Shown: positions 13,820 through 46,573 of the stretch, in pieces
How positions within the stretch are numbered: position 1 is the first letter of the stretch
How the letters are laid out: the number at the start of each line of letters is the position of its first letter
Assembly: GCA_027484685.1 (NCBI GenBank)
Contig: JAIXSO010000026.1
Location: forward strand, 18,406 to 82,405
Reading direction: 5' to 3'
Length of the DNA: 64,000 bases
Origin: Bacteroidota bacterium
GTDB lineage: Bacteria > Bacteroidota > Bacteroidia > UKL13-3
Position numbers and translations under genes: made by a program
The notes under the pieces: model-generated
What the model was told of the DNA's origin: nothing
The model's input: the letters and a program-made list of their open reading frames with translations, nothing else
Databases searched by the model: none

Positions 13820-14386
13820 TTAAACGTGCATAATTTCAGCTTCTTTAATAGCTAAAAGCTCGTCAATTTTTTTGATATAAGCATCAGTGGTTTTTTGTAC
13901 ACTTGCTTCAGCAGTTTTTGCTTCATCTTCAGGTAATCCATCTTTTTGTAATTTTTTGATGGTTTCGTTGGTTTCTTTTCTAATATTTCTAACAGCTACT
14001 TTAGCATTTTCCGATTCGGCTTTAGCTTTTTTAGCAATTTCTTTTCTTCTTTCTTCGGTTAATGGCGGTAAAGTTATGCGAATGATAGTTCCATCGTTAG
14101 TTGGATTGAAGCCTAAATTCGAAATAATAATACCTTTTTCAATGGCTTGGAACATGTTTTTTTCCCAAGGTTGAATGGTAATGGTTTTAGCATCAGGGGT
14201 GCTAATATTTGCTACTTGGCTTACAGGCACTAACGAGCCATAATACTCCACTTTTACGGCATCTATCATACTTGGATGCGATTTTCCTGCACGAATCTTT
14301 GTAAACTCGCTTGTTGCATGGTCAATTGCAGCATCCATCATTTGCTTTAAATTATCTAATACTGGTTTTAAACGTGGGTCGCTCAT
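13820..14386 (-). CDS. frr: Ribosome recycling factor
   Basis: 188 aa with full-length similarity to RRF ('ITIQPWEKNM...LPPLTEERRKE'). Confidence 0.92.
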   Translation of the reverse strand: MSDPRLKPVLDNLKQMMDAAIDHATSEFTKIRAGKSHPSMIDAVKVEYYGSLVPVSQVANISTPDAKTITIQPWEKNMFQAIEKGIIISNLGFNPTNDGTIIRITLPPLTEERRKEIAKKAKAESENAKVAVRNIRKETNETIKKLQKDGLPEDEAKTAEASVQKTTDAYIKKIDELLAIKEAEIMHV

Positions 14387-14461
14387 ATTATTATTTTATA
14401 ATTATTTTTATTGAAAAATTGTGTTTCTAAAATCAGCCGCAAAATAACATTTTAAAACAAT

Positions 14462-15397: not shown

Positions 15398-15514
15398 GAA
15401 TTTCGGGTTAAGAATTACGAATTACGAATTTATTGCTGCTGAGCGAAGCCAAAACTATAAACTGACAACTATGTACTAAATCACGCAAGGCGTGAAAGTG
15501 CTAAGAACTGTTTG

Positions 15515-29243: not shown

Positions 29244-30160
29244 TGTTAAAAAGTAAAAATTTAAAAGCCTACTTAGCATTTATTGCGGTAGCAATTTTTT
29301 GGGGTACCACATTCTTAGCCATTCGTATAGGCATTAATTCTGATGGTGTACATCATTTTCCTCCATTTTTATTGGCTGCATTTAGGCATTGTATTGCAGG
29401 GCTTTTAATTTGTTCCTACTTTATTCTTTACAAAAAACAGCCTTTACCTACACTTAAGCAATTTAAGTATTTTAGCATCAATGGTATATTGATGTTGGTA
29501 GGTGGTAATGGCATAATAAGTTGGGGAATGCAATACGTGGATAGTGGTTTGGCTGCTATTTTATGTGCACTTACGCCACTTTGGATAGTATTTATAAACC
29601 TGGCAATGGGTAGTAACGAAAAGGTTACCAAGGTAATGTGGGCAGGTTTTATAATTTGTTTACTAGCGCAATACCTTATTTTTTACGATAAAATAAATAT
29701 ACTCTCGGATAAAAATTACATTTATGGTTTAATAGCCATTATAGTTTCAAATATTTGTTGGGCATTTGGAACAGTTTTTTCTAAATCAAGCACTTCTCCT
29801 TTTCCTGCCTTGTATAATGCAGGCTTGCAAATGATTCCTGGAGGAGTTATTCTCTTAATTTTTTCAACTTTAACAGGCGATTGGAACAATTTTAACCCTA
29901 GTAGCAATTCTATTTGGGCTTTGGTTTATTTAATTTTATTTGGTTCTTTATTGGCTTACGGATGTTTTATGTACATAATAAAAGCGTTACCTGCAGCTTT
30001 GGTATCAACTTATGCATATATTAACACCATTGTGGCTGTCATATTAGGCGTGGTGTATTTAAAAGAAGAAATTAATGCCAAAGTAGTAGTGGCTATGTTG
30101 CTAACCATTCTTGGAGTTTACTTAGTTGGCAAAAAAGCTAAAGTAAAAGAAGCGAAATAG
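29243..30160 (+). CDS. EamA/DMT-family transporter
   Basis: 305 aa, 10 TM helices, two EamA repeats. Confidence 0.8.
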   Translation: MLKSKNLKAYLAFIAVAIFWGTTFLAIRIGINSDGVHHFPPFLLAAFRHCIAGLLICSYFILYKKQPLPTLKQFKYFSINGILMLVGGNGIISWGMQYVDSGLAAILCALTPLWIVFINLAMGSNEKVTKVMWAGFIICLLAQYLIFYDKINILSDKNYIYGLIAIIVSNICWAFGTVFSKSSTSPFPALYNAGLQMIPGGVILLIFSTLTGDWNNFNPSSNSIWALVYLILFGSLLAYGCFMYIIKALPAALVSTYAYINTIVAVILGVVYLKEEINAKVVVAMLLTILGVYLVGKKAKVKEAK

Positions 30161-30189
30161 CATTTGATTTTCTGTTTGATTTGATTTGG

Positions 30190-30558
30190 AAGTTTGCCTT
30201 TGGCTTCTAGCTGATTGGATTTTGTACTTGACGGATGCGATTTTGGAGTTTTCTTTTTGCGTTTTGGATTTTGCTGATTGGATTTTGCTTTTTGCTGGTG
30301 GCATTTTGGAGTTTTTTTCTAGCGTTTTGAAGTTTGCTGCTGGCGTTTTGGACTTTTCTTCTGACGTTTTGGAGTTGTCGGGTGCGATTTTACTTTTTGC
30401 TGGTGGCATTTTGGAGTTTTCTTCTAGCGTTTTGAAGTTTGCTGGTGGCGTTTTGGACTTTTCTTCTGGCGTTTTGGAGTTGTCGGGTGCGATTTTGCTT
30501 TTTGCTGGTGGCATTTTGGAGTTTTCTTCTAACGTTTTAAAGTTTGCTGGTGGCGTTT
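30190..30558. repeat. Tandem array of ~105-bp G/T-rich repeats (~3.5 copies) with ~21-bp internal sub-periodicity
   Basis: Direct reading shows 'gcgattttgctttttgctggtggcattttggagttttcttct(a/g)gcgttttgaagtttgctggtggcgttttggacttttcttctggcgttttggagttgtcgggt' repeated. Both strands give low-complexity repetitive ORFs. Confidence 0.8.
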
Positions 30559-30650
30559 AGGAGACTGTCCAAAAAAGTGTGTAAACGGATAAATTTAGAA
30601 CCCTATGCACAAAGCAAAAACATTTCTATTAAAAACAATTAAAATTTAAC

Positions 30651-33600
30651 TTGGTGGTAAATGATGAATTATTAAATTTGAATGTCAAAAATACAAATTC
30701 AATGATTAAATCAATTAAAAGTTTATCAAATCAATATTTCTTAGATTTAAAAAGTAAAAAAGTAAAAACAACCACATTCTTTAGAATATTTCTTTTGTTT
30801 GGTTTATTGTTTAGTTTACAATGTGTAATTGCACAACCCACCATTACTTCTTTTGCCCCATTAAGTGGAAAGGTTGGCGACACCATAACCATTTTAGGTA
30901 ATAGTTTTAATACTACTGCGGCTAACAATATCGTATTTTTTGGTGCAACTCGAGCAACAGTTTCGACAGCAACCTCAACAAGTTTAACGGTAACAGTACC
31001 AATAGGAGCGACCTTTGCACCTATTACTTTATTAAACACAGCCACGGGTTTAGCAACTTATAGTACTCAATTTTTCAACCCAGTATTTAGCCCTAGTAAA
31101 GGAAGTATAACATTGAATGATATTTCGCCAAAGGTTAACTTCACCGTAGGTTGGGCTCCAAAAACAGTATCCATTGGCGATATAGATGGGGATGGTAAAC
31201 CTGATTTGGCAATAGCTAATGAATATGACAATACTATTTCAGTATTACGCAATACTGGCAATAATGGTACTGTTAGTTTTGCACTAAAAGTGGATTTTGC
31301 AACAGGTTCAAATCCTAAAATTGTTGCCATTGGCGATATAAATGGTGACGGTAAACCTGATTTGGTAACAAATAATGTATCAAACAATTCTGTTTCGGTA
31401 TTGCGCAATACTAGCAGCAGTGGTACGATTAGTTTTGCAACAAAAGTAGATTTTACAACAGGTGGCAATCCTCAATCAGTTACCATAGGTGATTTAGATG
31501 GAGATGGTAAACCAGATTTGGCAATAGCTAGTTGGAGCAGCAATACCATTTCTGTATTACGCAATACTGGAAGTAGCGGCACCATTAGTTTTGCAACTAG
31601 GGTAAATTTCACTACAGGTTCAGGTCCTTATTCCTTAACCATTGGCGATATAGATGGTGATGGAAAACCTGATTTGGCAGTTGTTAATAGAGACAACAAT
31701 ACTATTTCTGTATTGCGTAACACTAGCAGCAGTGGTATAATGAACTTTGCCACAAAGGTAGATTTTACAACAGGTTCATCTCCTTATCAATTAGCAATAG
31801 GCGATATAGATGGGGATGGCAAGTTGGATTTAACAACTGCGAATATTGACAGCGATAGCGTTTCTGTATTGCGCAATACTAGCAGCAGCGGTACAGTTAG
31901 TTTTGCAACAAAAGTAGATTTTACAACAGGTACAAATTCAGAACCTTTTGCATTAGCGATAGGCGATATAGATGGAGATGGAAAACCTGATTTGGCAGTT
32001 GCTACCAGTGGATACAATACAATTGCTGTATTACGCAATATTAGTAGTAGTGGTACGGTTAGTTTTGGAGCAAAGGTAGATTTTGGAACAAGCCTATCTC
32101 CTTCTTTTATATCCATTGGCGATATAGATGGGGACAGTAAACCGGATTTGCTAATTACGAATAATGGAATTAATGGCACTGTTTCTGTATTGCGTAATAA
32201 CCCCCAACCTCCTCCTTCACCTCCCACCATCACCTCCTTTGCACCCTCTAGCTGTGCAATAGGTGCTACATTTTCAATAACAGGAACTGGTTTTAATACT
32301 ACACCTGCTAATAATGTGGTATTTTTTGGTGCTACACGTGCTACAGTAATTACAGCATCTGCTACTAGTTTAACTGTAATTGTGCCAATAGGTGCTAACT
32401 TTGCTCCTATTACAGTGTTAAACACGTTAACCGCTTTAGTTGCCTATAGTACTCAATTTTTTAAACCAATATTTAGCCCCACTAAAGGTAGTATTACCTC
32501 TACCGATTTAGCCGCAAAAGTTGATTTTGCAACAAATTCAGCAACTAAATCAGTAGCAGTTGGAGATATAGATGGAGATGGGAAAACTGATTTGGCAATT
32601 GTTAATGGAGGCAACAATACTGTTTCTGTATTACGAAACACTGGAAGCAGTGGTTTAGTTAATTTTGCAACAAAAGTAGATTTTACAACTGGTATAAATC
32701 CATGGTCAGTGGCTATTGGCGATATAGATGGAGATTCAAAACCTGATATGGTAATAGCTAATTATAACAGCAATACTGTTTCAATTCTACGCAATACTGC
32801 TAGTATCGGTGTACTTAGTTTTGCATTAAAAGTAGATTTTACATCAGGCATCCATCCTAAATCAGTAACTATTGGTGATATAGATGGAGATGGTAAACCA
32901 GATTTAGTAATAGCTAATGATAGCAGCAATAGTGTTTCTGTTTTGCGTAATACAGGCAGCAGTGGTTTCATTAATTTTGCACCAAAAGTAGATTTTGCAA
33001 CAGGCTCTTTTCCTAGTTCTGTAGCCATTGGCGATATAGATGGAGATGAAAAGCCTGATTTGGCAATACCTAATGATAGCAGTAATACTGTTTCTGTTTT
33101 GCGAAATATAAGTATCAGTGGTACCGTTAGTTTTGCAATTAAGGTAGATTTTGGAACCGGCACTCAGCCTACTTCTTTAGCTCTAGGCGATATAAATGGG
33201 GATGGGAGGCTTGATTTGGCAATAGCTAATAGAAGCAGCAATACTATATCTGTATTGCGTAATATAAGCACTAGTGGTGTGCTTAGTTTTGCACCAAAAG
33301 TAGATTTTGCAACTGGTTCAAGTCCTCGATTTGTAGCCATTGGCGATATGGATGGAGATGGTAAGTCGGATTTGGCAATAACAAATCAAGGGAGCAATAC
33401 TATTTCAATATTACGTAATACAAGCAATAATGCTACAGTTAGTTTTACAACAAAAGTAGATTTTATAACAAACACACAACCAAATACATTAGCCATTGGC
33501 GATATTGATGGAGATGGTAAACCTGATTTGGCGATAGAAAATGGAGGTAATACTGTTTCTTTATATCGTAATAACCCTCAAATATTTCCACCCAGCATTA

Positions 33601-36600
33601 CATCCTTTGCTCCTTTAAGCGGTACAGTAGGTTCTTCCGTAACTATTATAGGTTCTGGTTTTAACACTACACCTGCCAATAATATTATATTTTTTGGAGC
33701 AACACGTGCAACTGTAACTACCTCAACCACAAATAGTTTAACAGTAACAGTGCCAACAGGTGCCACTTTTGCACCAATAACATTAATAGATACAGGAGTT
33801 AATTTTACTGTACACAGTCCCCAGTTTTTCAATCCAATATTTAGCCCTAGTAAAGCTATTATTACCACTTCAGATATTGCGGCAAAATTAGATTTTTCGA
33901 CCGGTACAAGTCCTCGATCAATAGCCATTGGCGATATTGATGGAGATGGCAAATCTGATTTGGCAATCGCTAATACAAACAGTAAAACTGTTTCAATTTA
34001 TCGTAATACTGGCAAAATTGATACGGTAAATTTTGCAACAAAGGTAGATTTTACTACACTTTGGAGTCCTCTATCGGTTGCTATTGGAGACATAGATGGA
34101 GATGGAAAAGCTGATTTGGTAATTGCAAATGCAGGTAGTGATATTGTTTCTATATTTCGAAATACAAGTAGTAGTGGCATTATTAATTTTGCATCAAAGG
34201 TTGATTTTATTACAGGGTCGCTTCCTTATTCAGTAGTAATTGGAGATATAAATGGAGACGGTAAACCAGATTTGGCATTAACTAATTATAATAGCAATAC
34301 TGTTTCAGTGTTACGCAATACGGGCTTAAAAGGTTCAATAAGTTTTGCCACCAAAGTAGATTTTGCAACAGGATCAAATCCTTGTTCGGTAGCTATTGGA
34401 GATATAGATGGGGATGGTAAACCTGATTTGGCGATTGCTAACACAGGCAATATCTATACTGTTTCTGTATTACGTAATACAGGTAGTAATAATTCGGTTA
34501 ATTTTGCCACAAAGACAGATTTCACTACGGGTTCAAATTCAAAGTCCATAGAAATAGGCGATATAGATGGAGATGGAAAACCCGATTTGGCTATAGGCAG
34601 TAATTCTGTTTCTATTTTACGCAATACGAGTAGTAGTGGTTCGATTAGTTTTGCAACAAGAGTAGATTTTGCATCAGTATCAACTCCTTATTCATTAAAA
34701 ATTGGTGATATAAATGGAGATGGCAAACCTGATTTGGCAATAATTAATCAAAGCAGCAATAAACTTTCTATATTACGTAATACAAGTATCAGTGGTACAG
34801 TAGATTTTGCAACAAAGGTAGATTTTGCCTCAGGTACAAATCCTCTTTCAATAGCCATTGGCGATATTGATGGGGATGGCAAATCTGATTTGGCGATAGC
34901 AAACGAAAACAATAATTCTGTCTCTATTTTAAGAAATTATCCTCAACCACCGCCTCCTACCATTAATTCATTCACTCCAACCAGCGCAGTTGTAGGTGCT
35001 TCAATTTCCATAACTGGTGTAGGTTTTAACACGGTACCTACAAAAAATATAGTGTTTTTTGGTGCAACTAAAGCAATTGTAACAGCAGCAACTGACACCA
35101 GTTTAATGGTATTGGTACCTATAGGTGCCTCTTTTGCACCAATAACTATATTAAATACTGCTAACACTTTATCAGCTTATAGTACACAATTTTTCAACCC
35201 AATATATAGTCCTAGTAAAGGAAGTATAACCACAAATGATATAACAACAAAGCAAGATTTTACAACTGGGCCGCAATCCAGAGCTGTAGCTATTGGAGAT
35301 TTGGATGGTGATGGCAAACCCGATTTGGCTGTAGTTAATAATGTTGGTGCTACTGTTTCCATATTAAGAAATACAGGAAGCATTGGTTCGGTTAGTTTTG
35401 CAACCAAGGTTGATTTTTCTACGGGTACAGATCCTGAGTCAATATCTATTGGAGATATAAACGGAGATGGTAAACCTGATTTAGTTGTGACAAATTTTGG
35501 AAGCAGCACTGTTTCAGTTTTTCGCAATATAAGCATGAATGGAGCAATTAGTTTTGCTACAAAAATCGATTTTGCAACAGGTACAAATCCCAGTTCAGTG
35601 GCCATTGGCGATATTGATAAAGATGGCAAACCAGATTTGATAGTAACTAATTATAATAATGGCTTTAACTCTATTTCTGTCTTTCGTAATACCAGTAACA
35701 GTGGTACAATTAGCTTTGATTTAAAGGTAGATTTTGAAACAGGAGGTAATCCGGCCTCAGTAGCTATTGGCGATATTGATGGAGATAATAAACCCGATTT
35801 AGCAATAGCCAATCAAATGAGCAATACTGTTTCAATACTACGGAATACAAGTATTTATGGAACAGTTAGTTTTGCAACAAAGTTAGATATTACAATGATT
35901 TCTGAGCCTTTTTCAATTGCCATTGCTGACTTAGATGGCGATGGAAAATCTGATTTAGCAATAGCAAATGTTAGCAGTATTGGAAAATCAGTTTCTGTCT
36001 TAAGGAATACCAGTAGCATTGGTTCAGTGAGTTTTGCATCAAGGGTAAATTTTTCGGCAAATGGAGATCCTTATTCAGTATCCGCTGGCGATCTAGATGG
36101 AGATGGAAAGCCTGATTTGGCAATCGCTAGTTTTAGCAGTTCAGTTTCAGTATTGCGAAATACAAGTGTGAGCGGTACTATTAATTTTGCTACTAGGGTT
36201 CCTTTTACAACAGGCTCATTTCCACGATCAGTAGCATTGGGTGATATAGATTGTGACGGCAAACTTGATTTGGTGGCATCTAACAGTAACAGCCAAACTG
36301 TTTCCGTATTGCGTAATAACCCACAATTTCCTCCCACAATTTCCACAATAGGTAATTTAACACCATTTATTTCTTGTACTGGCAGTGCTTCAGCACAGCA
36401 AACATTTACAGTAACTGGAACTAATTTAATAGCAAATTTAATGGTAATACCACCAATAGGCTTTGAGATAAGTACTACTTCTGGTTCAGGTTTTGGAAAC
36501 AGTGTTAGTTTATCTCCTTCCTCAGGCACAATAAACGCAATCTTATATATACGTTTAACCAATTCGGTAACAGGTTCGCCAAGTGGAAATATAGTTTGTG

Positions 36601-37787
36601 CCTCAACAATTGCTGATACACAAAATGTAGCTGTATATGGTTTAGTAAAAGCAACATCAACTAGTACTACAAATATTTCAGTCTGCTCAAGTACATTACC
36701 TTTTACTTGGAATAGTAGAGCATATAATTCAAGTAGAACAGATACTGTTTATTTAACCAATTTCGTTGGTTGTGATAGTATTACCATTTTAAAATTAACA
36801 GTTAAACCTACAAGTTCATCAACTTCTAATATAAGCATTTGCCCTAGTGCATTGCCTTATACTTGGAATGGAAGAACATATAATTCCAATAGCATAGATA
36901 CGGTTTATTTAACCAATTCCGTGGGTTGCGATAGTATTACTATTTTAAAATTAACTGTAAAACCTACAAGTTCATCAACTTCTAATATAAGCATTTGTCC
37001 TTCAGCACTGCCTTATACTTGGAATGGAAGAACATATAATTCCAATAGCATAGATACTGTTTATTTAACTAATTCAGTAGGTTGCGATAGTATTACCATT
37101 TTAAAACTAACAATAAAACCAATTAGTACTTCAACAAATAACATAAGTATTTGTCCGAGCGCATTGCCTTATACATGGAATGGATTAATCTTTAACGAAT
37201 CAGGAACGCAGACCAAAACAGGTTTAACTAATTCGGTTGGATGTGATAGTTCAGCAACTTTAAATTTATCGGTAAATCCAATTCCAGCAACTTCCAATAT
37301 TACAGGCTTTACCAATGTAGCAAGGTTAGATACAGCTACTTATTCGGTAATAGGAACAAGTGGTTCAGTTTTTAATTGGGCAACTACAAAAGGATTGGTT
37401 CAAACAGGCGCGGGTACAAATCAAATAAAAGTAAAATGGAATACAGCCGGAATGGATACTTTAAAAGTTACTGAAACTTCTAATCAAGGTTGTGTTGGTT
37501 CACAAAAAACACTATTGGTTAATATTGGTCCTGCTACCGGAATGAATGAAATCAATGCAAGTAATAATATACTGGTTTATCCAAATCCATTTAACGAAAC
37601 CATATTTATTTCATTGCTTAATAATTCAGGTTTGAACAAAGCTATTTTATATGATTTATTAGGTAAAGAGGTTTTAACTACCCATAAAAGTGAAATAGAT
37701 GTGAAAGAGTTAAAATCTGGCGTTTATTTGATAATGGTGATTGATAATAATGGCAATAGTTATAGCCAAAAATTGATTAAAAATTAG
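30651..37787 (+). CDS. Giant T9SS-secreted protein with 4 x [IPT/TIG domain + 7 FG-GAP repeats] plus C-terminal Cys-containing repeats and a type-A CTD
   Basis: 2378 aa with signal peptide. Twenty-eight 'IGD(I/L)(D/N)GDGKPDL' FG-GAP calcium-binding motifs in four sets of seven. Each set is preceded by 'P(T/S)ITSFAP..G....I.G.GFNTT' IPT-like domains. Four ~57-aa 'ISICPSALPYTWNG...VGCDSITILKLTVKP' repeats. C-terminal 'VYPNPF...GVYLIMVIDNNG' T9SS CTD. Antisense ORFs inside the gene are repeat artefacts. Confidence 0.85.
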   Translation: MVVNDELLNLNVKNTNSMIKSIKSLSNQYFLDLKSKKVKTTTFFRIFLLFGLLFSLQCVIAQPTITSFAPLSGKVGDTITILGNSFNTTAANNIVFFGATRATVSTATSTSLTVTVPIGATFAPITLLNTATGLATYSTQFFNPVFSPSKGSITLNDISPKVNFTVGWAPKTVSIGDIDGDGKPDLAIANEYDNTISVLRNTGNNGTVSFALKVDFATGSNPKIVAIGDINGDGKPDLVTNNVSNNSVSVLRNTSSSGTISFATKVDFTTGGNPQSVTIGDLDGDGKPDLAIASWSSNTISVLRNTGSSGTISFATRVNFTTGSGPYSLTIGDIDGDGKPDLAVVNRDNNTISVLRNTSSSGIMNFATKVDFTTGSSPYQLAIGDIDGDGKLDLTTANIDSDSVSVLRNTSSSGTVSFATKVDFTTGTNSEPFALAIGDIDGDGKPDLAVATSGYNTIAVLRNISSSGTVSFGAKVDFGTSLSPSFISIGDIDGDSKPDLLITNNGINGTVSVLRNNPQPPPSPPTITSFAPSSCAIGATFSITGTGFNTTPANNVVFFGATRATVITASATSLTVIVPIGANFAPITVLNTLTALVAYSTQFFKPIFSPTKGSITSTDLAAKVDFATNSATKSVAVGDIDGDGKTDLAIVNGGNNTVSVLRNTGSSGLVNFATKVDFTTGINPWSVAIGDIDGDSKPDMVIANYNSNTVSILRNTASIGVLSFALKVDFTSGIHPKSVTIGDIDGDGKPDLVIANDSSNSVSVLRNTGSSGFINFAPKVDFATGSFPSSVAIGDIDGDEKPDLAIPNDSSNTVSVLRNISISGTVSFAIKVDFGTGTQPTSLALGDINGDGRLDLAIANRSSNTISVLRNISTSGVLSFAPKVDFATGSSPRFVAIGDMDGDGKSDLAITNQGSNTISILRNTSNNATVSFTTKVDFITNTQPNTLAIGDIDGDGKPDLAIENGGNTVSLYRNNPQIFPPSITSFAPLSGTVGSSVTIIGSGFNTTPANNIIFFGATRATVTTSTTNSLTVTVPTGATFAPITLIDTGVNFTVHSPQFFNPIFSPSKAIITTSDIAAKLDFSTGTSPRSIAIGDIDGDGKSDLAIANTNSKTVSIYRNTGKIDTVNFATKVDFTTLWSPLSVAIGDIDGDGKADLVIANAGSDIVSIFRNTSSSGIINFASKVDFITGSLPYSVVIGDINGDGKPDLALTNYNSNTVSVLRNTGLKGSISFATKVDFATGSNPCSVAIGDIDGDGKPDLAIANTGNIYTVSVLRNTGSNNSVNFATKTDFTTGSNSKSIEIGDIDGDGKPDLAIGSNSVSILRNTSSSGSISFATRVDFASVSTPYSLKIGDINGDGKPDLAIINQSSNKLSILRNTSISGTVDFATKVDFASGTNPLSIAIGDIDGDGKSDLAIANENNNSVSILRNYPQPPPPTINSFTPTSAVVGASISITGVGFNTVPTKNIVFFGATKAIVTAATDTSLMVLVPIGASFAPITILNTANTLSAYSTQFFNPIYSPSKGSITTNDITTKQDFTTGPQSRAVAIGDLDGDGKPDLAVVNNVGATVSILRNTGSIGSVSFATKVDFSTGTDPESISIGDINGDGKPDLVVTNFGSSTVSVFRNISMNGAISFATKIDFATGTNPSSVAIGDIDKDGKPDLIVTNYNNGFNSISVFRNTSNSGTISFDLKVDFETGGNPASVAIGDIDGDNKPDLAIANQMSNTVSILRNTSIYGTVSFATKLDITMISEPFSIAIADLDGDGKSDLAIANVSSIGKSVSVLRNTSSIGSVSFASRVNFSANGDPYSVSAGDLDGDGKPDLAIASFSSSVSVLRNTSVSGTINFATRVPFTTGSFPRSVALGDIDCDGKLDLVASNSNSQTVSVLRNNPQFPPTISTIGNLTPFISCTGSASAQQTFTVTGTNLIANLMVIPPIGFEISTTSGSGFGNSVSLSPSSGTINAILYIRLTNSVTGSPSGNIVCASTIADTQNVAVYGLVKATSTSTTNISVCSSTLPFTWNSRAYNSSRTDTVYLTNFVGCDSITILKLTVKPTSSSTSNISICPSALPYTWNGRTYNSNSIDTVYLTNSVGCDSITILKLTVKPTSSSTSNISICPSALPYTWNGRTYNSNSIDTVYLTNSVGCDSITILKLTIKPISTSTNNISICPSALPYTWNGLIFNESGTQTKTGLTNSVGCDSSATLNLSVNPIPATSNITGFTNVARLDTATYSVIGTSGSVFNWATTKGLVQTGAGTNQIKVKWNTAGMDTLKVTETSNQGCVGSQKTLLVNIGPATGMNEINASNNILVYPNPFNETIFISLLNNSGLNKAILYDLLGKEVLTTHKSEIDVKELKSGVYLIMVIDNNGNSYSQKLIKN
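36640..37260 (+). repeat. Intragenic ~171-bp tandem repeats (4 copies; the two central copies almost identical at nucleotide level)
   Basis: Near-identical DNA blocks at ~36781-36950 and ~36951-37120 encode the Cys-containing 57-aa modules. Confidence 0.75.
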
Positions 37788-38021: not shown

Positions 38022-39356
38022 ATGAAAAAAATTTATATTTTGTTCTGTTTTATTTTATTGAACGTTAACGTATTTTCTCAAAATGGATTATATGGTATTG
38101 TAAGAAAAAATTATTATTCAATTGTTAGAAATCCTACAGATACTAATCAAACATTCGAACAATTTGATTCTGCAACAATTCGATTAGGGTTTTTAAATCC
38201 GTCATCAGGACAAGTTAGTAATATAGGCAGCAATTTATACAATCAAACAATTAACCTAACTGGAGCTGCTTTAAACCCTTACGACAGCACGTTTATTTAT
38301 ATTGGAGCAGATAAAATTAATACAATTGATTTAAATACGGGTGTAATTATTAATAGTATTCCTTTGTCAAATCCTATACAAAGTAGTTACTTTGATAACT
38401 TTAGGTTTAATAATTCGGATAGTACCATGTATGGTTTAGCGCGAAGAAGTTATTTGGATCCAATTACTAACACCTTAGTTGGTGAAGTTTACATGGCTAA
38501 AGCAAATACCAATACAGGCGTAATAACGCAAATTTCTCCAAGTTCTGTTGGAAATGGATATGCATTATTGGGCAGTTCAATTGATCCTTATCAAATGGTT
38601 TATTATTATTCAGATGGAACACATATTATTGGATTAGATATTTATACTGGCTTGGTTTACAGTAAGGTGGTAATTAACAATGTGTTTGGAACAACGTTTG
38701 GAAACTTTACTTACAATTGTAATGATAATAAAATATATGGGCTAATTGGAAAGAACTATTTTAGAACTGTAACTGATTCACTTGGTACTTATGAAATACT
38801 GGATTCAAATACACAAACTTTGGGCACTATCAATCCTAATTCTGGAATTGTAACTCAAGTTTCGGCCAATACATTAAGTAAAGTTGGATATACAATAAAT
38901 GGAGGTTCTACAATTGACCCTAATACCAACACTTATTATTTTAATATAGGTACCAAAGTAATTGGTGTATCAATTTTTGATGGAACTATAGTTAGCGATC
39001 CTAGTTTTATTTTTTCTGATGGACAGTATTTTGATTTAATAAGAAACTTACAAAGCTGCTATTCGGCTTATTCATTGAGAAAAAAACCAACAAATGTTGC
39101 CTCTGTTAATTCTCAAAAAAATAATATACAAGTTTATCCTAATCCGTTTAAAAATACGGTAAGTGTAAATGGAGGTAATCAACAAATAGGAACAGTGGAG
39201 ATTTACTCTATATCAGGTAGTTTAATAAAGAAACAAAACATAACTGAAAATGGCCAAGAAATTGAACTTTCAGAATTAAAAAGTGGAATTTATTTTTTAA
39301 AAATAAATACTCCAGAAAACGAAAGTACCTTTATAAAAATTTGCAAATCGGAGTAA
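38022..39356 (+). CDS. T9SS-secreted protein with type-A C-terminal sorting domain
   Basis: Signal peptide. C-terminal 'VYPNPFKNTVSV...GIYFLKINT' CTD. Confidence 0.7.
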   Translation: MKKIYILFCFILLNVNVFSQNGLYGIVRKNYYSIVRNPTDTNQTFEQFDSATIRLGFLNPSSGQVSNIGSNLYNQTINLTGAALNPYDSTFIYIGADKINTIDLNTGVIINSIPLSNPIQSSYFDNFRFNNSDSTMYGLARRSYLDPITNTLVGEVYMAKANTNTGVITQISPSSVGNGYALLGSSIDPYQMVYYYSDGTHIIGLDIYTGLVYSKVVINNVFGTTFGNFTYNCNDNKIYGLIGKNYFRTVTDSLGTYEILDSNTQTLGTINPNSGIVTQVSANTLSKVGYTINGGSTIDPNTNTYYFNIGTKVIGVSIFDGTIVSDPSFIFSDGQYFDLIRNLQSCYSAYSLRKKPTNVASVNSQKNNIQVYPNPFKNTVSVNGGNQQIGTVEIYSISGSLIKKQNITENGQEIELSELKSGIYFLKINTPENESTFIKICKSE

Positions 39357-39473: not shown

Positions 39474-42400
39474 TTGAAATTGTTACAAACAAGCATAATG
39501 AATAAAGAAACCCATATTCAAAATTATTTTAAAACGGTTAAAGCTGCTTCAAATGAACTTTCTAAAAAGGAAGCTTTTAAAGATTTATTGAATAGAATAT
39601 ATGCTAATGAGGAGTCTTATACAAAACTGATTGATAGAATGACCTTAGGTTCTGAAAAAGCCATTTTTAATATTCCAAAAGGTGATAAAAATAAAACAGG
39701 AAGGGCTGATACCAAATACAATCAAGTAATTATTGAATTTGAAAAAGACTTACGTAAAACTGGAGAACATGCCAAAGAACAATTAGCTGAATACTTTTTT
39801 GGAACTTATAAAAGTGGAGGAGATTATAACCTAACCTTAATTGCTACCGATTGCATAACTTGGAAAATATTTGTACCAAGTTTTGAAACCTTTGAAAACA
39901 TAAGCTCAATAAAGCTACGCGAAGTAAAATTGGAAGAGTTAAAAGGTGGAACTTTTGTTTTAAGCGAAAATAATGGCAATGATTTCTTTTATTTTATCGA
40001 CCGTTATTTGTTTAGAACGGAAGCTCAAAAAGCTACTTTAGAATATATTGAACAAGATTTTGGTTTACAATCTGCTGTATTCATCAACTCATTTAAACAA
40101 CTAAAAGAACATTTTAATGATGTAAAAAAATATGGTGAAGTGCAAGTAAGCTTTGAACAATGGCGTAAGTTTTTGTTTATAGCTTATGGTATAGAAGAAT
40201 TACCAGAAAATATATTTTTAGTACATACTTATTTAAGTGTTTTTGCTAAGATGCTTGCCTATACTGTTCTTACTGATGATGATTTTATTGACGACCAAGA
40301 GCTAGAGCAAATTATTAATGGAAGTATTTTTGAAACATTAAATGTAAAAAATTTAACTGACAATGACTTTTTTCATTGGGTAAAATCTGAACGAAGTTTT
40401 AGAGAACTAAAATCTGCTTTTAGGCAAATAGCCCTGGAGTTAAGTAATTATAGTTTTAAAAATGTAGATGAAGATGTTTTGAAAGGGGTGTATCAAAACT
40501 TAATTGATATTGATACTCGTCACGCTTTGGGTGAATACTACACACCCGATTGGCTTTGTGAAATGGTGGTAAGAGAAATGCCAATAAAAACAGATAGTAA
40601 AACATTAGACCCTAGTTGTGGAAGTGGTTCGTTTTTAAGAACAGTTATAGATAAACTTAAAAATGAAAATAAAACAATAACAGCAAATGAATTGGCAAAT
40701 AATGTTTATGGCATAGATATTCATCCATTAAGTGTGCAAATAGCTAAAACTACCTTACTTGTTGCTATTGGAAAAGATTTAATTCGAAAATCGAAAAAAC
40801 CAGTTAGTTTAAACGTATTTTTATCAAATACCATATTGATTCCTGATGGTGTAAAAAACCTATTTGGTGGTGATTTTACCTTAACTATTGATAGAGAAAA
40901 ATATAAACTAAATACCCAAGTTTTAGAAGATGATAAACTATTCGATGAAGCATTAAATGTAGCAGATGCTTTGGCAGAGTTAACCTTGGGTAAAAAGGCT
41001 GTTGACCAAACTACTTTTATTAATAATTTAAAGAAAAGTTATCCTTATGCACCTATTCCTGTATTAAACGATAGCTTGTATAAAATATATTTAGGTTTGA
41101 AAAGAACCAAAGAAAGCGGTAGAGATAGTATTTGGAAGTTTATACTTCAAAATATGTACAAGCCATATTTTTTAAAAGAAAGATTCGATTTTATAGTGGG
41201 TAATCCGCCTTGGTTTACTTGGAGTAGCGTTAAAAAAGAGGATTACCAAGATGAACTTAAAACACTTGCAGAAAGCTACTAAGTAATGCCTGAACGCAAA
41301 GCCAATTTTCCACACTTGGAAATCGCAGCCATTTTTTTAGCGCATTGCAGCAATTATTTTTTAAAAGAAAATGGTCAATTAGCATTTGTATTACCAAGAA
41401 GCTTTATGAGTGCTGACCAACATGAAAATACACGAAATGGCAAAGCCAAAGGATTTACCTTAACACAAATTTGGGATTTGGATGCTGTTACTAATTTATT
41501 TAGGGTGCCTAGTTGTGTTTTATTTTCCGAAAAGAAATTAAAAACTTCAGTAAGCCAATACCACAAAGGTATAAATGGAATAAGCTTTAAGGGGCGAATA
41601 AAAAAACATAATTGTAGTATAAAGGAAGTAGAAGATGCTGGAGTATTAACTCAAACCGAAAATACATTTTACTATACTACATTGGGAAAAAGCAGTGCTT
41701 TTAGTGTTTCTAAGCAATCAAAAAAAGGAAGTCAAAATAAAACGAGTTATTACAAAACTTCGTTTAAACAGGGAGCTACATTAGTGCCTCGAAATTTTTA
41801 TTTTGTAGAGCTAACACAAGAAGAGCCCGAAGATTGGGACGATAGGTTGATAAATATAAAAACCAGTTCTGAAAGCATGAAACAAGCCAAAAAACCTTGG
41901 AATGAAATAGACATGCACGGACAAATAGATAGCCAATATTTTTTTAGAACAGCTATTTCTAAAAATGTTTTGCCTTTTGTTTTGTATAATCCCGAATTGG
42001 TAATACTTCCTATAAAAATAAACCAAGAAAATAAACAAATAACCATGCAAACGCATGAGGAAATTTTGAAGGACGGTTACTATATCACAGCGCAATGGTT
42101 TAAGAATGTAGAAAATGTTTGGAATATTCTTAAAACTGAAAAAAATGAAAAAATTTCAAGCGGAAATTATTTGAATTGGCAAAACAAATTAACCGATCAA
42201 GATTTAAATAAAAAGTACATGGTACTTTATACTGCAAGTGCAAAAAATGCAAATAGCTGTGTGGTAAAACGGGAAGATTTAAAATTGGAATTTATAGTAG
42301 AAAGTACAACTTATGTATTTTTTTCAAACAATAAAAATGAAGCTTATTATGTTTCTGCTTTACTAAATTCAAGTGTTCCAAATGAATTAATGAAAGACTT

Positions 42401-42671
42401 TCAAGCAAAGGGATTATTTGGAGAACGCCATGTACATAAAAAAATATTAGACATTCCTTTTCCACAATTTAACGAAATGAATCAAGCTCATATTGATTTG
42501 GCTTTACTATCAGAAAGCTGCCATACCAAAGCTGCCAAATGGATGAGAGAAAACAATATTCCTGATAATTTAGACCCAATAAAACTAGGCAAAGTTAGGG
42601 TTCAAATAAAAGCTTATTTGAATGAGGAGATGAAAAAGATAGATAAGTTGGTGAAGGGGGTGATAAAATGA
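39474..42671 (+). pseudogene. MmeI-like single-chain (type IIG/IIL-like) N6-adenine DNA methyltransferase/RM gene interrupted by one in-frame TAA (41280-41282)
   Basis: ORFs 39474-41282 and 41286-42671 share a frame. Motif I 'LDPSCGSGSFL', 'GEYYTP', motif IV 'GNPPWF' lie before the stop. Conserved post-catalytic 'LAFVLP' plus ~350 aa TRD-sized tail lie after it. N-terminal 'D...IIEFEKDL' segment is reminiscent of a PD-(D/E)xK nuclease head. Confidence 0.7.
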
Positions 42672-42678
42672 TAGGTTA

Positions 42679-43830
42679 ATGTTTAAAGTTTTACATTGGA
42701 AAAAAATTATTTTTAATATTATTCGAGTTGTCATCATGAAAAAAGAATCATTGTTTTATAACCCAACATTTAGTGTTTTTATCCAAGCTTTTATTGTAGT
42801 TTGTTTAGGTTTATGCACTATTCCAATAATTGGTTTTGTATTTTCTTCAATATTTAAAATAGCTCCAAATAATTTAGGAGATACAATAGGAGGAACAATG
42901 GGGCCATTCGTTGCTTTATTTGCTGCCTTGTTAACTTTCTTGGCTTTTTATGTTCAATATCAAGCAAATCAGTCGCAGAGGAACGACATAAAAAGAGAAA
43001 GATTTGAAACACAATATTATGAAATAATTAAATTGCACAGAGAAAATGTTTCGGAAATAAAAATAAGAAGTGATAATGGTTCTATTGAAAGTAGATATGC
43101 ATTTGTAACAATGTTCAATGAATTTAAATTTATTTATCGTTTTTGTTATGACACGTATTTTAGAATGGTGGAAAGAGGAAAAATTGAGATATTAGATAAT
43201 GAAGAGTTGATTGTTAAAGAAAAAATTCTCAATATGTCTTACATTCTATTTTTTATAGGTGTAGGTCCAAATTCATTTGATTTAAGTTTTGCTTCTGCTT
43301 CTGAAAAATCTAAAAAATTACACAAAGAATGTTATGAAGAATTAGAAAAATTGAAGTTAAAACATGTTGATAATAACTATTTTTCAAAATTTAATTTTGA
43401 AAAATTAGGAATAGAAATGGTACTTCAATTAAAATACAAACCTTTTGGAGGGCATATGTCGAGATTAGGACATTACTACAGGAATTTATATATGGCAATA
43501 AAATATGTAGATTCACAAGACTTTTTAAGTGAAAATGAAAAATATAGTTACATTAAAATAATTAGGGCTCAATTGTCAAATCATGAACAAGCCCTAATAT
43601 ACTACAACGTAATTTCTGGTTTTGGTTGGCGTTGGATAGAAAAAGAGAAAAACTATTTAGTAAAATATCGACTCATTCATAATGTACCTACAACATTATT
43701 AGAATTTGCAATTAAACCAAGAGACCATAAAATAATTGGTGAACAAATAAAAGAGTGGGAAGAAGTCAAGAATAAAAATCACAAAGAAGACTTAAATGGA
43801 TGGACACCTTTTTTTGAATGGGAAGAATAA
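42679..43830 (+). CDS. Two-TM membrane-anchored protein, possible abortive-infection-like protein
   Basis: Two N-terminal TM helices then a ~290-aa cytoplasmic domain. Architecture resembles the 'putative phage abortive infection protein' family. Likely true start at 42736 (MKKESL). Confidence 0.4.
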   Translation: MFKVLHWKKIIFNIIRVVIMKKESLFYNPTFSVFIQAFIVVCLGLCTIPIIGFVFSSIFKIAPNNLGDTIGGTMGPFVALFAALLTFLAFYVQYQANQSQRNDIKRERFETQYYEIIKLHRENVSEIKIRSDNGSIESRYAFVTMFNEFKFIYRFCYDTYFRMVERGKIEILDNEELIVKEKILNMSYILFFIGVGPNSFDLSFASASEKSKKLHKECYEELEKLKLKHVDNNYFSKFNFEKLGIEMVLQLKYKPFGGHMSRLGHYYRNLYMAIKYVDSQDFLSENEKYSYIKIIRAQLSNHEQALIYYNVISGFGWRWIEKEKNYLVKYRLIHNVPTTLLEFAIKPRDHKIIGEQIKEWEEVKNKNHKEDLNGWTPFFEWEE

Positions 43831-43842
43831 AAAAATTATAAA

Positions 43843-44802
43843 ATGGAAAAGAAATATTCAGTCTTTGTAAGTTCAACTTATGAAGATTTAAAAGAACATA
43901 GAGAAAAAGTAATATATAGTTTAGTTGAAAATAATTATTTTCCTGTTGCTATGGAATTTTTCCAAGCTTCAAGCGATAATAAATGGGAGCGAATAAAAAA
44001 GTTAATTAAAGATTGTGATTATTTTATTTTGATAGCTGGCGGTAGGTATGGAGAAATTCAATACGATGATAAAAGTTTTATTGAGTTGGAGTATGATTTT
44101 GCATTAGAAAATAATATTCCTGTAAATGTTTTTGTTGTAAATTCAATTGACGAACTTAGAAGTAAAGATGTTGATCATGGAGAAAAAAGAGAAAGTTTAA
44201 ATAGGTTTATCAGGAAAATTCAGGATGATAAAATATCAAAATCATACAAAAATGTTGATGATTTAAAAGCTGTAGTAGTTAATTCATTAAATCGATTAAT
44301 TATAGATAGTCCAAGAGTTGGTTGGATAAGGGGTACTACCTATAAAATTAAAGAAACTTTAAATGAGAGAATTGATTTCGAAATAGACATTACTGAAATT
44401 ACCAAATGGATAAATACTGAAAATATTACAATAGAATATAACCCAATTGGTAAAGATTATTCCATATTTTCTTTTGAAAATTTTTCTTCCGAATCTCTTG
44501 CTTTAAGTGTAAAAGAAGTTTGGGATATACTTCGATTAAAATGTTTGCAAGAACTTCCTGAAACGGAAATAGGAAAGAGTTTAAATTTGCTCATCGACAG
44601 AAAAATAAAGGTTAGTATAAAAGATAAATTTTCATTTAATGACACCAATATTTTTAAAGATTCATTTGATAATGTAATAAGAGTTTTTGTTGATAGAGGT
44701 TTAATTGAACCTTCTTTAAAAAGTAAATTAAGTATTAAAAATCAAAAAGATTGCTATTGGAAGTTATCTTCATTGGGAGAAGTTATCAATAGTGGAAAGT
44801 AA
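43843..44802 (+). CDS. DUF4062 domain protein with uncharacterised C-terminal domain
   Basis: N-terminus 'YSVFVSSTYEDLKEHREKV...FPVAMEFF...DCDYFILIAGGRYGEI...ELEYDFA' matches the DUF4062 consensus. Confidence 0.7.
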   Translation: MEKKYSVFVSSTYEDLKEHREKVIYSLVENNYFPVAMEFFQASSDNKWERIKKLIKDCDYFILIAGGRYGEIQYDDKSFIELEYDFALENNIPVNVFVVNSIDELRSKDVDHGEKRESLNRFIRKIQDDKISKSYKNVDDLKAVVVNSLNRLIIDSPRVGWIRGTTYKIKETLNERIDFEIDITEITKWINTENITIEYNPIGKDYSIFSFENFSSESLALSVKEVWDILRLKCLQELPETEIGKSLNLLIDRKIKVSIKDKFSFNDTNIFKDSFDNVIRVFVDRGLIEPSLKSKLSIKNQKDCYWKLSSLGEVINSGK

Positions 44803-44825
44803 AAATAACTTTAATAATTATTTTT

Positions 44826-45923
44826 ATGGATAAACTCATTCCAACATTTACTGATATCAGTAAATGGAACATAAACGTATATACTAATACGGGAGGTACA
44901 CGTAGCAAGCAAATTGCGGTGCATCCTGAAACTGATAAGGAATATTTTTTTAAAGGTTCTAAAGTAATTAAAGATACCAATGAAATACGTTATCCTACTG
45001 AATTTTGGTCTGAAATAGTTTCGTCAAAAATAGGTCAATATTTAGGTTTCGATATGCTTGATTATAATATTGGATTTAACCAAAATAATCAATTGCAAAA
45101 AATTGGTTGTCTTTCGAAATCAATGATTGAAAACTCTGAAAATAGATTAACAGAAGGAAAAATGTATTTGATGGGTTTTAATTCAAATTACAATCCAAAT
45201 TTGAAGGAACATCAGAGTTTATATACTTTTCAATTCATAAGTGAATCTCTTATAAGTTTTGATTTTGAACTATTTATCAATAAGGTAATAGAAGTTATAA
45301 TCTTTGATAGTATAATTGGCAATTCTGATAGGCATCAAGAAAATTGGGGAATAATTACTAACTATAACCACACCATAAGGGGTATAGATGCACATTTAGA
45401 AACTGAAGTTAAGAATTTTTTTACAAAACAAAAATTTCGTGTAGCTAAATGGTATTTAAAGCTAATTTCTAAAGCACAGATTAATATGAAAAAAATTCCA
45501 AAATCAATTTTATCTCAGCAATCATCATTTGCTCCAAATTTATTTGCTCCAATATATGATAGCGGTTGTTGCTTAGGGAGAGAAATTGAAGAGGAAAGAT
45601 TAAATAAAATGTTGCTAGATAATAATATGTTAGAAGCTTACGTTAGAAAAGGTGAATCAGAAATTCATTGGGATGGGTTTGAGAAAAAAAAGAAGCATTT
45701 TGAGTTAATTAATTTGGTTAAAGAAATACATAAATACCAAGTTTGTGAAGTTATTGATAGGGTAGTGAATAAATTCAAGAATGAAGATATACAAACAATA
45801 ATATTTAATATTGACAGAAATATTCCTCCTCATTTAAGCCAATATAAATTAGCAGATAATAGAAAAGAGTTAATGAATAAAATTATAAATTTGCGCATTG
45901 AAAAGTTGAAAGAGATAAGATGA
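44826..45923 (+). CDS. HipA/HipT-like serine/threonine kinase (toxin-type kinase core lacking the HipA N-subdomain)
   Basis: Catalytic-loop-like 'IIGNSDRHQENWGII' and 'FAPIYDSGC' correspond to HipA '(I)GNTD.H.KN(F/W)' and 'AP.YD' motifs. 365 aa. Confidence 0.6.
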   Translation: MDKLIPTFTDISKWNINVYTNTGGTRSKQIAVHPETDKEYFFKGSKVIKDTNEIRYPTEFWSEIVSSKIGQYLGFDMLDYNIGFNQNNQLQKIGCLSKSMIENSENRLTEGKMYLMGFNSNYNPNLKEHQSLYTFQFISESLISFDFELFINKVIEVIIFDSIIGNSDRHQENWGIITNYNHTIRGIDAHLETEVKNFFTKQKFRVAKWYLKLISKAQINMKKIPKSILSQQSSFAPNLFAPIYDSGCCLGREIEEERLNKMLLDNNMLEAYVRKGESEIHWDGFEKKKKHFELINLVKEIHKYQVCEVIDRVVNKFKNEDIQTIIFNIDRNIPPHLSQYKLADNRKELMNKIINLRIEKLKEIR

Positions 45924-46573
45924 AAGAGATAGGAAACATACATTTGTGTTGGCGTCAAGCAAAAGGATCCAATAGGATTCCCATAGGTACTATTAAACAT
46001 AGTGTTACAGGTGGAGTACGTTTCTCTTATAATCAGAATGAAGTAGCAAAAGCAAGAAAATTAGGTTTTCAGCATTACGAAGGATTTCCAGATATAACAA
46101 AGGTGTATGATGAAAATGTGCTAGAAATATTTGGACAGAGGTTAATTAAAAGTGAACGTTCTGACACAAGTGCCTTTTATGAATTTTGGGGAATAGATGC
46201 CCAATATAAAGATAACGATTTCTATATGCTTGCTTATACTCAAGGACTTTTACCAACCGATAACTATGAGTTTTTGGCAGACTTTCACCCAATGCCTAAT
46301 CTATCGTTTGTTTCTGAAATTACAGGTTTAACTGAAGCTAAGTTAGAAGCTGATTTGTTAAAAGTTGGAGATAAATTGACTTATAAACGAGAGCCAAATA
46401 ATGTCTTTGATAATAAAGCAATAGGTCTATACTTAGGAGAATTGTATTTAGGCCATGTTAAATTAATTCATAGTAGAGTGTTTTATAAAACAAATACCTT
46501 ATTAAAAGTTAGTGTTCATAATATTGAAAAGAATGGTTTCTTGAAAAGGGTATTTATTAAGATAAATAGTTAG
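45920..46573 (+). CDS. HIRAN-domain protein
   Basis: C-terminal 'LKVGDKLTYKREPNNVFDNKAIGLYL..LGHV' fits the HIRAN consensus (REP.NPYD.NAI.V....LG(Y/H)V). Start overlaps the kinase stop (ATGA). Confidence 0.65.
   Translation: MKEIGNIHLCWRQAKGSNRIPIGTIKHSVTGGVRFSYNQNEVAKARKLGFQHYEGFPDITKVYDENVLEIFGQRLIKSERSDTSAFYEFWGIDAQYKDNDFYMLAYTQGLLPTDNYEFLADFHPMPNLSFVSEITGLTEAKLEADLLKVGDKLTYKREPNNVFDNKAIGLYLGELYLGHVKLIHSRVFYKTNTLLKVSVHNIEKNGFLKRVFIKINS

Follow-up and report, generated by a model that had tools for sequence, protein, structure and literature searches.

A giant Bacteroidota protein with four tandem IPT/TIG and seven-bladed FG-GAP propeller modules, a predicted cargo of the type IX secretion system

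The 64,000-nucleotide (nt) stretch of DNA analysed here (hereafter the window; positions 18,406 to 82,405 of contig JAIXSO010000026.1, assembly GCA_027484685.1, from a Bacteroidota bacterium of the GTDB lineage UKL13-3) carries on its forward strand a long gene, 30651..37787, whose product, hereafter the giant protein, consists of four tandem modules, each an IPT/TIG domain followed by a seven-bladed FG-GAP beta-propeller, and of a C-terminal part with two-cysteine repeats, a PKD-like domain and a type A C-terminal sorting domain (CTD) of the T9SS (type IX secretion system). Building on the integrity of the open reading frame (ORF), the domain content, the fold of the module, the purifying selection acting on the gene and the distribution of its family, all documented below, we propose that this is a T9SS-exported, Ca2+-stabilised, multivalent binding protein, an adhesin or lectin, and assign this reading a probability of roughly 0.6; within it, binding is much less certain than the architecture and the route of export. 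An initial inspection of the DNA by itself (the sequence-only reading) had suggested a large surface adhesin exported through T9SS, and this still appears to be the best-supported interpretation.

The gene is a single ORF of 2378 codons counted from a TTG (30651), with no internal stop, and an NCBI-derived protein, P0001, is 100% identical to its product over the full length, which bears out the expectation that the ORF is real and intact. The 2377 amino acids (aa) of P0001 imply initiation at a GTG (30654); the first ATG, at 30702, gives 2361 aa plus stop and is the likely start codon, and residues are numbered from it here. A look-up of the exact ATG-initiated sequence gave no entry. The -7 promoter consensus of Bacteroidetes is TAnnTTTG. 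By eye, TAAATTTG at 30673..30680 (+), 22 nt before the ATG, fits this pattern and weakly hints at a promoter which, if real, would favour the ATG as the start. A scan with sigma-70 promoter and terminator models, of which the sigma-70 model does not apply to the Bacteroidetes phylum, yielded no enrichment, and the region upstream of the gene had no Rfam match. Directly upstream there is an intergenic tandem repeat (30241-30563) with a 105-nt unit in 3.1 copies and 91% matches, the unit being composed of a 21-nt sub-period (15 copies); on the minus strand, an ORF at 30122-30514 would specify a repeat peptide rich in Lys, Pro and Ser, MPPAKSKIAPDNSKTPEEKSKTPPANFKTLEENSK in three copies. The parts of the giant gene are as follows.

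30702..37787 (+): whole gene, from ORF listing and translation, identity to P0001 and a ratio of nonsynonymous to synonymous substitution rates (dN/dS) below 1 in all regions against the closest relative, P0002
30702..30836 (+): predicted Sec signal peptide covering aa 1-45; by inspection of the sequence
30837..32222 (+): module 1, IPT/TIG plus seven-bladed FG-GAP propeller, aa 46-507, ending in RNNPQPPPSPP; Pfam and Ca-loop motifs
32223..33590 (+): module 2, IPT/TIG plus seven-bladed propeller, aa 508-963; modelled with AlphaFold2 and compared with Foldseek
33591..34955 (+): module 3, IPT/TIG plus seven-bladed propeller, aa 964-1418; Pfam and Ca-loop motifs
34956..36335 (+): module 4, IPT/TIG plus seven-bladed propeller, aa 1419-1878; Pfam and Ca-loop motifs
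36336..36653 (+): domain X, 106 aa, beta-rich, aa 1879-1984; conserved among homologues
36654..37277 (+): four tandem 52-aa two-Cys repeats, aa 1985-2192, proposed stalk; Tandem Repeats Finder, AlphaFold2 and Foldseek
37278..37535 (+): PKD-like domain PKD_6 (PF19408), aa 2193-2278; E 2.3e-5, 25.1 bits against a cutoff of 25
37536..37784 (+): T9SS type A CTD, aa 2279-2361; PF18962 and TIGR04183

The regularity of the head is evident from its calcium loops. A regular expression for the loop found exactly 28 matches in the window, all in the frame of the giant gene and none in the other five frames, and the looser pattern DxDxDxxxD recovered the identical 28 sites, again with none in the other five. 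The loops are spaced 49-54 aa apart, mostly 52, and form four sets of seven, the sets being 144-148 aa apart; a DxDxDGxxD (Dx[DN]xDGxxD) loop, a predicted calcium site, lies between strands 1 and 2 in 28/28 blades. Pfam recognises FG-GAP (PF01839) in 28 stretches (E 1.5e-182, 590 bits against a cutoff of 22.1), FG-GAP_3 (PF13517) in 27 stretches (E 1.6e-234, 759 bits against 26.9) and TIG (PF01833) in four (E 4.5e-31, 107 bits against 20.9). Proline-rich junctions, RNNPQPPPSPP, RNNPQIFPP, RNYPQPPPP and RNNPQFPP (aa 498, 956, 1411 and 1871), close the four modules. The organisation anticipated by the sequence-only reading, namely 28 blades in four sevens, an IPT/TIG-like domain before each seven, a Pro-rich linker per module and, after these, Cys-containing repeats and a T9SS CTD, is therefore recovered, its domains by the searches in Pfam and NCBIfam and, for the TIG and propeller part, by the model of module 2 described below. 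Its description of the blades as near-perfect holds for the calcium loop, which is nearly invariant, and fails for whole blades, which are only about 57-61% identical. Pfam matches to Itfg2, BBS1/2, PliI and FAM234 had no independent stretch and were dismissed as cross-matches to FG-GAP-like blades; a Tc-toxin assignment, resting on PF12256 (TcdB_toxin_midN), was dismissed on the same grounds.

Predicted signals for export lie at both ends. The N-terminus has a long basic n-region and a hydrophobic core, FFRIFLLFGLLFSL, followed by VIA|QPTITSF, where signal peptidase I is predicted to cut; the Gln at +1 agrees with the Q-rule described for Bacteroidetes in PMC5837995. A lipobox is absent, the residues before Cys41 being S-L-Q. 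At the extreme C-terminus, the NCBIfam type A sorting model TIGR04183 matches at 44.5 bits (cutoff 23), and Por_Secre_tail (PF18962) matches aa 2292-2359 with E 1.7e-11 (44.7 bits against a cutoff of 27), improving to 1.9e-13 when the C-terminal segment is searched in isolation. Two further genes of the window bear a CTD, which we count in favour of a T9SS cargo: a 444-aa protein (38022-39356) that begins 235 nt downstream of the giant gene and has a type A CTD as its only recognisable domain, and, on the minus strand at 16083-18740, an 884-aa type A cargo with two Bact_surface_Ig-like domains, an HYR domain and a CTD. The mature protein has a computed mass of about 230 kDa and a pI of 4.63, and roughly every second residue is Ser, Thr, Gly, Asn or Asp.

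We modelled module 2 with AlphaFold2 on an alignment (A1) of 27 rows, the four modules and 23 modules cut from homologues. The model has a mean predicted local distance difference test score (pLDDT) of 94.4 and a predicted template modelling score of 0.92, and begins with an all-beta sandwich (residues 1-85), after which come 28 propeller strands; this supports a module made of a TIG domain and a closed seven-bladed propeller. The strand list opens with a short strand, 100-103, and closes with a three-stranded blade, 420-448; from this secondary-structure listing the N-terminal strand appears to complete blade 7, that is, to close the ring by a strand swap ("velcro" closure). In a Foldseek search of the PDB with this model, FG-GAP propellers and propeller binding proteins rank first: ITFG2 in the KICSTOR complex (E 1.5e-10, template modelling (TM) score 0.58), murine CRTAC1 (E 6.2e-10), BT_3476 (3tc9) and BACOVA_00264 (4hw6) with E 1.7e-9 to 2.5e-9 and low TM scores of about 0.4, the Photorhabdus fucose lectin PLL (5c9o/8q7u; E 1.7e-8, TM 0.55/0.69) and integrin alpha-V (E 2.9e-7). 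Searched by sequence, solved structures gave matches to integrin alpha-IIb propellers only, at E about 4e-4.

The same list contains two catalytic propellers with related calcium blades, the rhamnogalacturonan lyase YesX (2zuy; rank 38, E 2e-7, TM 0.40) and aldos-2-ulose dehydratase (4a7k), which raises the question of whether the giant protein might be an enzyme that degrades polysaccharide, like the rhamnogalacturonan lyases of polysaccharide lyase family 11 (PL11) or that dehydratase. NCBIfam points the same way with FusH, a fusidic acid esterase, although below threshold (153 bits; cutoff 999). We regard this as very unlikely: both structures rank under non-catalytic FG-GAP propellers and match with low TM scores, and PL11 propellers are eight-bladed with distinct catalytic inserts, whereas those of the giant protein are seven-bladed. 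Moreover, no carbohydrate-active enzyme, hydrolase or lyase family scores above curated cutoffs in Pfam or NCBIfam, the window holds no SusC/D pair, polysaccharide utilisation locus (PUL) or glycan-degrading enzyme, and near-consensus propellers devoid of a conserved, blade-specific active-site asymmetry suit a scaffold better.

The similarity among the blades raises a different concern, namely that the array is a product of recent tandem duplication or gene conversion, or of mis-assembly of repeats in a metagenome-assembled genome (MAG), with no stable function. Tandem Repeats Finder indeed reports 156-nt and 312-nt periodic arrays along the gene, and highly repetitive VCBS/FG-GAP propellers, catalogued by Pereira and Lupas in 2022, have been interpreted as recent amplifications (PMC9218822). 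The modules, however, are 59-65% identical in protein sequence and only 68-72% in DNA, and blades are about equally similar (about 57-61%) whether the two compared share a module, hold equal positions in different modules or are paired in any other way. Where two blades have the same residue, their fourfold-degenerate sites agree in 0.42-0.48 of cases, compared with 0.36 expected from codon usage and 0.72 between orthologues; synonymous sites between blades are thus near saturation, which implies that the blades are old. The closest relative, P0002, encoded in an independent ENA metagenome assembly (locus L001), is 77% identical and has four modules in unchanged order, with identities of 0.87, 0.84, 0.81 and 0.77 between like-numbered modules and about 0.6 off the diagonal. 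Judged from these comparisons, the four modules are long-standing and individually conserved, and the likeness of the blades is best described as a consensus held by selection and not as a recent amplification or an assembly artefact. For the propellers the latter possibility is largely refuted, and for the gene as a whole we consider it extremely improbable; the stalk does speak for it, with 91% DNA identity between Cys repeats 2 and 3 and one repeat fewer in the orthologue (three in P0002, four in the giant protein). On this evidence, that change is the sole recent event in the gene.

Pairwise NG86 estimates of dN/dS against P0002 are 0.13 for the Ca loop, 0.24 for the rest of the propeller, 0.28 for TIG, 0.29 for the CTD, 0.30 for the stalk and 0.49 for the top-face loops; with values below 0.5 in every region, the giant gene is under purifying selection throughout. 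Synonymous divergence (dS) from P0002 is about twofold higher in the stalk and CTD (36336-37784; 0.71-0.77) than in the propeller head (30837-36335; 0.36-0.39), which is suggestive of a mosaic past, such as an exchange with paralogues at the 3' end. Across the 28 blades, per-column entropy is near zero in the Ca loop and strands and peaks in the 2-3 loop and on either side of the 4-1 loop's conserved Pro. In the canonical topology these two loops form one "top" face, the ligand face of integrins, opposite the Ca hairpins (PMC3192720). Propeller lectins, too, contact their ligands with these loops. With variation concentrated there, each propeller would show its own surface.

A homologue search showed how widespread this architecture is: 5,298 of 8,000 scored candidates matched the giant protein at E<=1e-20. 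When parsed with TIG and blade profiles built from the giant protein, the top 120 homologues all resolved into units of one TIG and seven blades, in 2 to 8 copies (for instance 2 in P0022, 5 in P0008 and P0014, 6 in P0005 and 8 in P0003), so that the propeller number of four, which the sequence-only reading had proposed to compare among orthologues, is shared with P0002 and varies beyond it. Among the named sources of the homologues are Pedobacter glucosidilyticus, Hymenobacter canadensis, Flavobacterium restrictum, species of Mucilaginibacter and numerous Bacteroidota MAGs; the proteins are named "FG-GAP-like repeat-containing protein" (NCBI), "IPT/TIG domain-containing protein" or "gliding motility-associated-like protein" (JGI), the last name referring to homologues with a type B CTD (PF13585). 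Thus, as far as database annotation goes, the architecture is common and already annotated in Bacteroidota, not a rarity. The remark that such tetra-propeller proteins are rarely characterised stands in a narrower sense: in the literature we found neither a functional study of them nor a paper joining FG-GAP with T9SS. The nearest statements are that DxDxDG propellers are treated as mostly carbohydrate or protein binders (PMC9218822), that integrin-type propellers occur in bacteria (Chouhan et al. 2011; PMC3192720), an analysis of the "calcium blade" (PMC3123361), and a remark that FG-GAP proteins of marine flavobacteria are putative adhesion proteins (PMC2668756).

A subfamily with domain X, Cys repeats, PKD_6 and CTD in the tail has 2 or 4 propellers and 2-9 Cys repeats. 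In L001 (ENA ERZ27272710 k141_12882, 1-15460) the orthologue stands between paralogous genes of the TIG, FG-GAP, PKD_6 and CTD type, forming a three-gene tandem cluster, unlike the giant gene, which is present in a single copy in the window. For all other relatives, the identity between any of their modules and any module of the giant protein is 49-67%, and this uniformity means that the orthology of blades or modules is not traceable past P0002. These features led us to a tentative generalisation, possible but on balance doubtful, that the arrays of TIG and seven calcium blades in Bacteroidota are a recognition system with a constant scaffold and variable loops, in which each propeller would be a unit of specificity: across thousands of modules the consensus is kept at about 60% identity, variation is confined to the loops of the top face, the number of modules (2-8) and the length of the stalk (2-9 Cys repeats), and three paralogous genes adjoin in L001. 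If true, the family would be a major class, so far overlooked, of multivalent lectins or adhesins displayed by way of T9SS, and would decide which particles, algae or cells a Bacteroidota strain holds. ClpB (47947-50550, minus strand), 99% identical to proteins titled "MAG: Bacteroidia bacterium" and 81% to that of Bacteroidetes bacterium UKL13-3, places the organism no more closely than as an uncultured member of the Bacteroidia. As a side observation on sampling, homologues of ClpB at 97-99% identity populate at least 16 protein clusters and derive from many metagenomes, in contrast to the giant protein, for which we found a single 100% copy and a next relative at 77%; the contrast reflects either strong strain-to-strain variation of the gene or poor metagenome assembly of repeat-rich genes. 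A search with the upstream DUF420 protein, meant for comparing very close strains, gave contigs of 1-1.7 kb only.

The C-terminal region adds a proposed stalk. The two-Cys repeats, with the consensus C..LPYxWNG..Y..........N..GCDS..TL.LTV, form a 156-nt array (3.2 copies, 86% matches), and lack a dedicated Pfam or NCBIfam model, their sole match being one of 35 bits to the unrelated Glyco_hydro_79C. Domain X has no Pfam match even at E<=10; of the 120 homologues retrieved, 11 further proteins conserve it. An AlphaFold2 model of aa 1879-2361, computed with an 18-row alignment (A2), has a mean pLDDT of 76; in ten-residue blocks the score is 53-92 (mostly 76-92) for the Cys repeats, about 90 for PKD_6, 76-92 for the CTD and 41-63 for the poorly modelled domain X. 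In this model each Cys repeat is a small beta domain. With the same model as a query, fragments of GhpA take each of the top eight places in Foldseek (E 4.5e-13 to 8.5e-8), at TM scores of only about 0.2 because the similarity runs domain by domain. GhpA, the grappling-hook protein of Aureispira, is a T9SS substrate whose stem of 52 Ig-like repeats is disulfide-stabilised and likely carries O-glycans (bioRxiv 10.1101/2024.01.29.577165). Sequence searches of the PDB with the Cys repeats and with their Aureispira relative, L006, gave no match, and that relative is not GhpA; the resemblance, as modelled, is one of fold and not of family. The giant protein has 11 O-glycosylation sequons of the form D[ST][AILVMT], eight of them within the Cys repeats and the PKD domain. 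Each repeat contains a C-D-S that is invariant in the family and, with the hydrophobic residue after it, coincides with the Bacteroidetes O-glycosylation sequon; this placement would fit a glycosylated stalk. A query with domain X and the Cys repeats retrieved 14,901 cluster representatives at E<=1e-3 (2,957 at E<=1e-30), with proteins of up to 6,310 aa, so a by-product of this work is the recognition of a very abundant 52-aa two-Cys repeat (~14,900 cluster representatives). Among GTDB species representatives, none of which gave a 100% match, the best relative of the C-terminal region (58% identity; L002/L005, CAYTWI01 contigs) belongs to a MAG titled "uncultured Bifidobacterium sp."; this bin is probably mislabelled or contaminated, given that a protein with a T9SS CTD is out of place in an actinobacterium.

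A T9SS cargo of this size and repetitiveness, whose stalk consists of small beta domains as in GhpA and SprB, could also be a gliding-motility adhesin that, like SprB or RemA, is moved along the cell surface on tracks and provides traction on substrata, and many homologues built of TIG and propellers carry the type B CTD and bear a gliding-motility name. We consider this unlikely for the giant protein: its CTD is of type A, not type B, SprB repeats (PF13573) were not detected in it by Pfam, PorP/PorE-like (PorP/SprF-like) anchor genes are absent beside the gene and within the window, and gld and spr genes are likewise absent from the window.

From these features we infer the secretion route, anchoring, calcium occupancy, head and stalk geometry and binding function as follows. 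The Sec signal peptide, cut at VIA|Q, would direct export to the periplasm, and the type A CTD would target the protein through the T9SS translocon, after which the CTD would be removed and the protein anchored on anionic lipopolysaccharide or released. PKD_6, the four two-Cys beta domains and domain X would form a disulfide-containing stalk beside the cell, and the N-terminal 1830 residues a head of four beads, each an IPT/TIG sandwich with a closed seven-bladed FG-GAP propeller. The head would hold 28 predicted Ca2+ sites, one per blade, and with DxDxDGxxD in every blade, folding and rigidity should depend on extracellular Ca2+. The variable top faces would then provide multivalent binding of a polysaccharide or protein ligand.

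Several points weigh against this proposal. Many type A CTD proteins of environmental Bacteroidota are released and not anchored. T9SS machinery genes are absent from the window, and the capacity of the host for such secretion is read from the CTDs only. The neighbouring genes (cytochrome oxidase assembly, an EamA transporter and a defence island) give no hint of function, and the literature that we searched contains no ligand, expression or localisation data for the giant protein or its family. The placement of the variable loops on the top face relies on the canonical propeller topology, and these loops are merely less constrained, at a dN/dS of 0.49 at which positive selection is not demonstrable.

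The frequent release of type A cargo also lends some substance to the idea of a secreted soluble protein that, after CTD removal, would be part of a biofilm or matrix, or would serve as a sink or means of acquisition for Ca2+ via its 28 DxDxDG loops. A complete Ca loop in every blade and the acidity of the mature protein are in line with this, and the T9SS of Cytophaga hutchinsonii is, in one account (PMC7906972), reported to be needed for Ca2+ acquisition. Against these stand the structural nature of FG-GAP Ca sites, which are permanently occupied (PMC3192720) and hence ill-suited to reversible capture, the Ig-like/PKD stalk just before the CTD, typical of displayed proteins such as GhpA, and the four individually conserved propeller surfaces, needless for plain ion binding. 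We therefore hold a soluble calcium or matrix protein to be rather unlikely and retain the multivalent adhesin or lectin as the preferred interpretation.

The genes upstream on the same strand are respiratory, encoding cytochrome c oxidase subunits II and I, CtaA, a UbiA-family prenyltransferase, two COX3-family proteins, SCO1 and a DUF420 protein, and after them comes the EamA transporter. The defence island (39474-46573), downstream of the gene for the 444-aa CTD protein, is of low G+C content (0.27-0.31) and comprises a Type IIG restriction-modification enzyme split over two ORFs (39474-41282 and 41286-42671), putAbiC (42679-43830), a DUF4062/TIR-like protein (43843-44802) and a candidate PDC-M03 A/B system (44826-45923 and 45920-46573).

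The way in which Bacteroidota adhere to particles, polymers and other cells, and feed on them, is determined by T9SS cargo, and most giant cargo proteins have no assigned role; the giant gene is a clean example of a very common architecture. It leaves current understanding unchanged, being one more member of an annotated family, and it illustrates that strong internal symmetry of a propeller can be old and maintained by selection, and is not necessarily a sign of recent amplification.

Among known systems, integrin alpha, ITFG2 and CRTAC1 share with the giant protein the seven-bladed FG-GAP fold and the DxDxDG loops in the 1-2 hairpin. In integrins, however, Ca sites are confined to 3-4 blades and the loops are longer and irregular, and to the propeller are added thigh and calf domains, a transmembrane helix and an obligate beta subunit (PMC3192720), whereas the giant protein has Ca loops in 28/28 blades, four propellers, TIG spacers and a T9SS signal. 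In Pfam searches, integrin leg domains were absent and the C-terminus proved to be a T9SS CTD and not a transmembrane helix. A true integrin homologue was accordingly rejected, for the leg domains, the transmembrane helix and the beta partner are all missing, and of the "integrin-alpha-like" arrangement suggested earlier the propeller fold is the part that survives. The bacterial propellers described in PMC9218822 and PMC3192720 are closer in that their blades are about 60% mutually identical, with one Ca site per blade and tandem seven-blade sets; those papers view high symmetry as recent amplification, and the 2011 paper assumed a cytoplasmic location, unlike the giant protein, in which synonymous sites are near saturation and export signals are present.

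BT_3476 and BACOVA_00264, "auxiliary nutrient binding proteins" of Bacteroides, resemble the giant protein in having an N-terminal IPT/Ig domain followed by a beta-propeller and in their cell-surface location, but the propeller is of a different type and the TM scores are low. Both are lipoproteins encoded in PULs. A PUL glycan-binding lipoprotein was rejected as an identity for the giant protein, which has no lipobox and no SusC/SusD neighbours and has four FG-GAP propellers. Proteins of the GhpA/SprB type are likewise giant T9SS cargo in which a small, Ig-like, disulfide-containing and probably O-glycosylated stem lies between the CTD and a distal head. GhpA differs in its 52 stem repeats, its assembly into heptamers, its lack of propellers and its PorP/PorE-like anchoring partners, which are not found next to the giant gene; with only four stalk repeats plus PKD_6, a type A CTD and no SprB repeat, the giant protein was not classed as a filamentous adhesin of this type. 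A PL11 rhamnogalacturonan lyase was also set aside, the propeller being seven-bladed, YesX ranking only 38th and no lyase family being found in Pfam or NCBIfam.

The PLL lectin of Photorhabdus shares a seven-bladed propeller of like size and offers a precedent for sugar binding between blades, although at 15% identity it represents another blade family and does not share the Ca-loop consensus. The nearest counterpart is the Bacteroidota FG-GAP-like/IPT-TIG family itself, whose members, 34-77% identical to the giant protein, are built of the same unit of one TIG and seven calcium blades, arranged in tandem and usually followed by a T9SS CTD. They differ from it in module number (2-8) and in the number of Cys repeats (2-9), and many of them end in a type B CTD or in other C-terminal domains.

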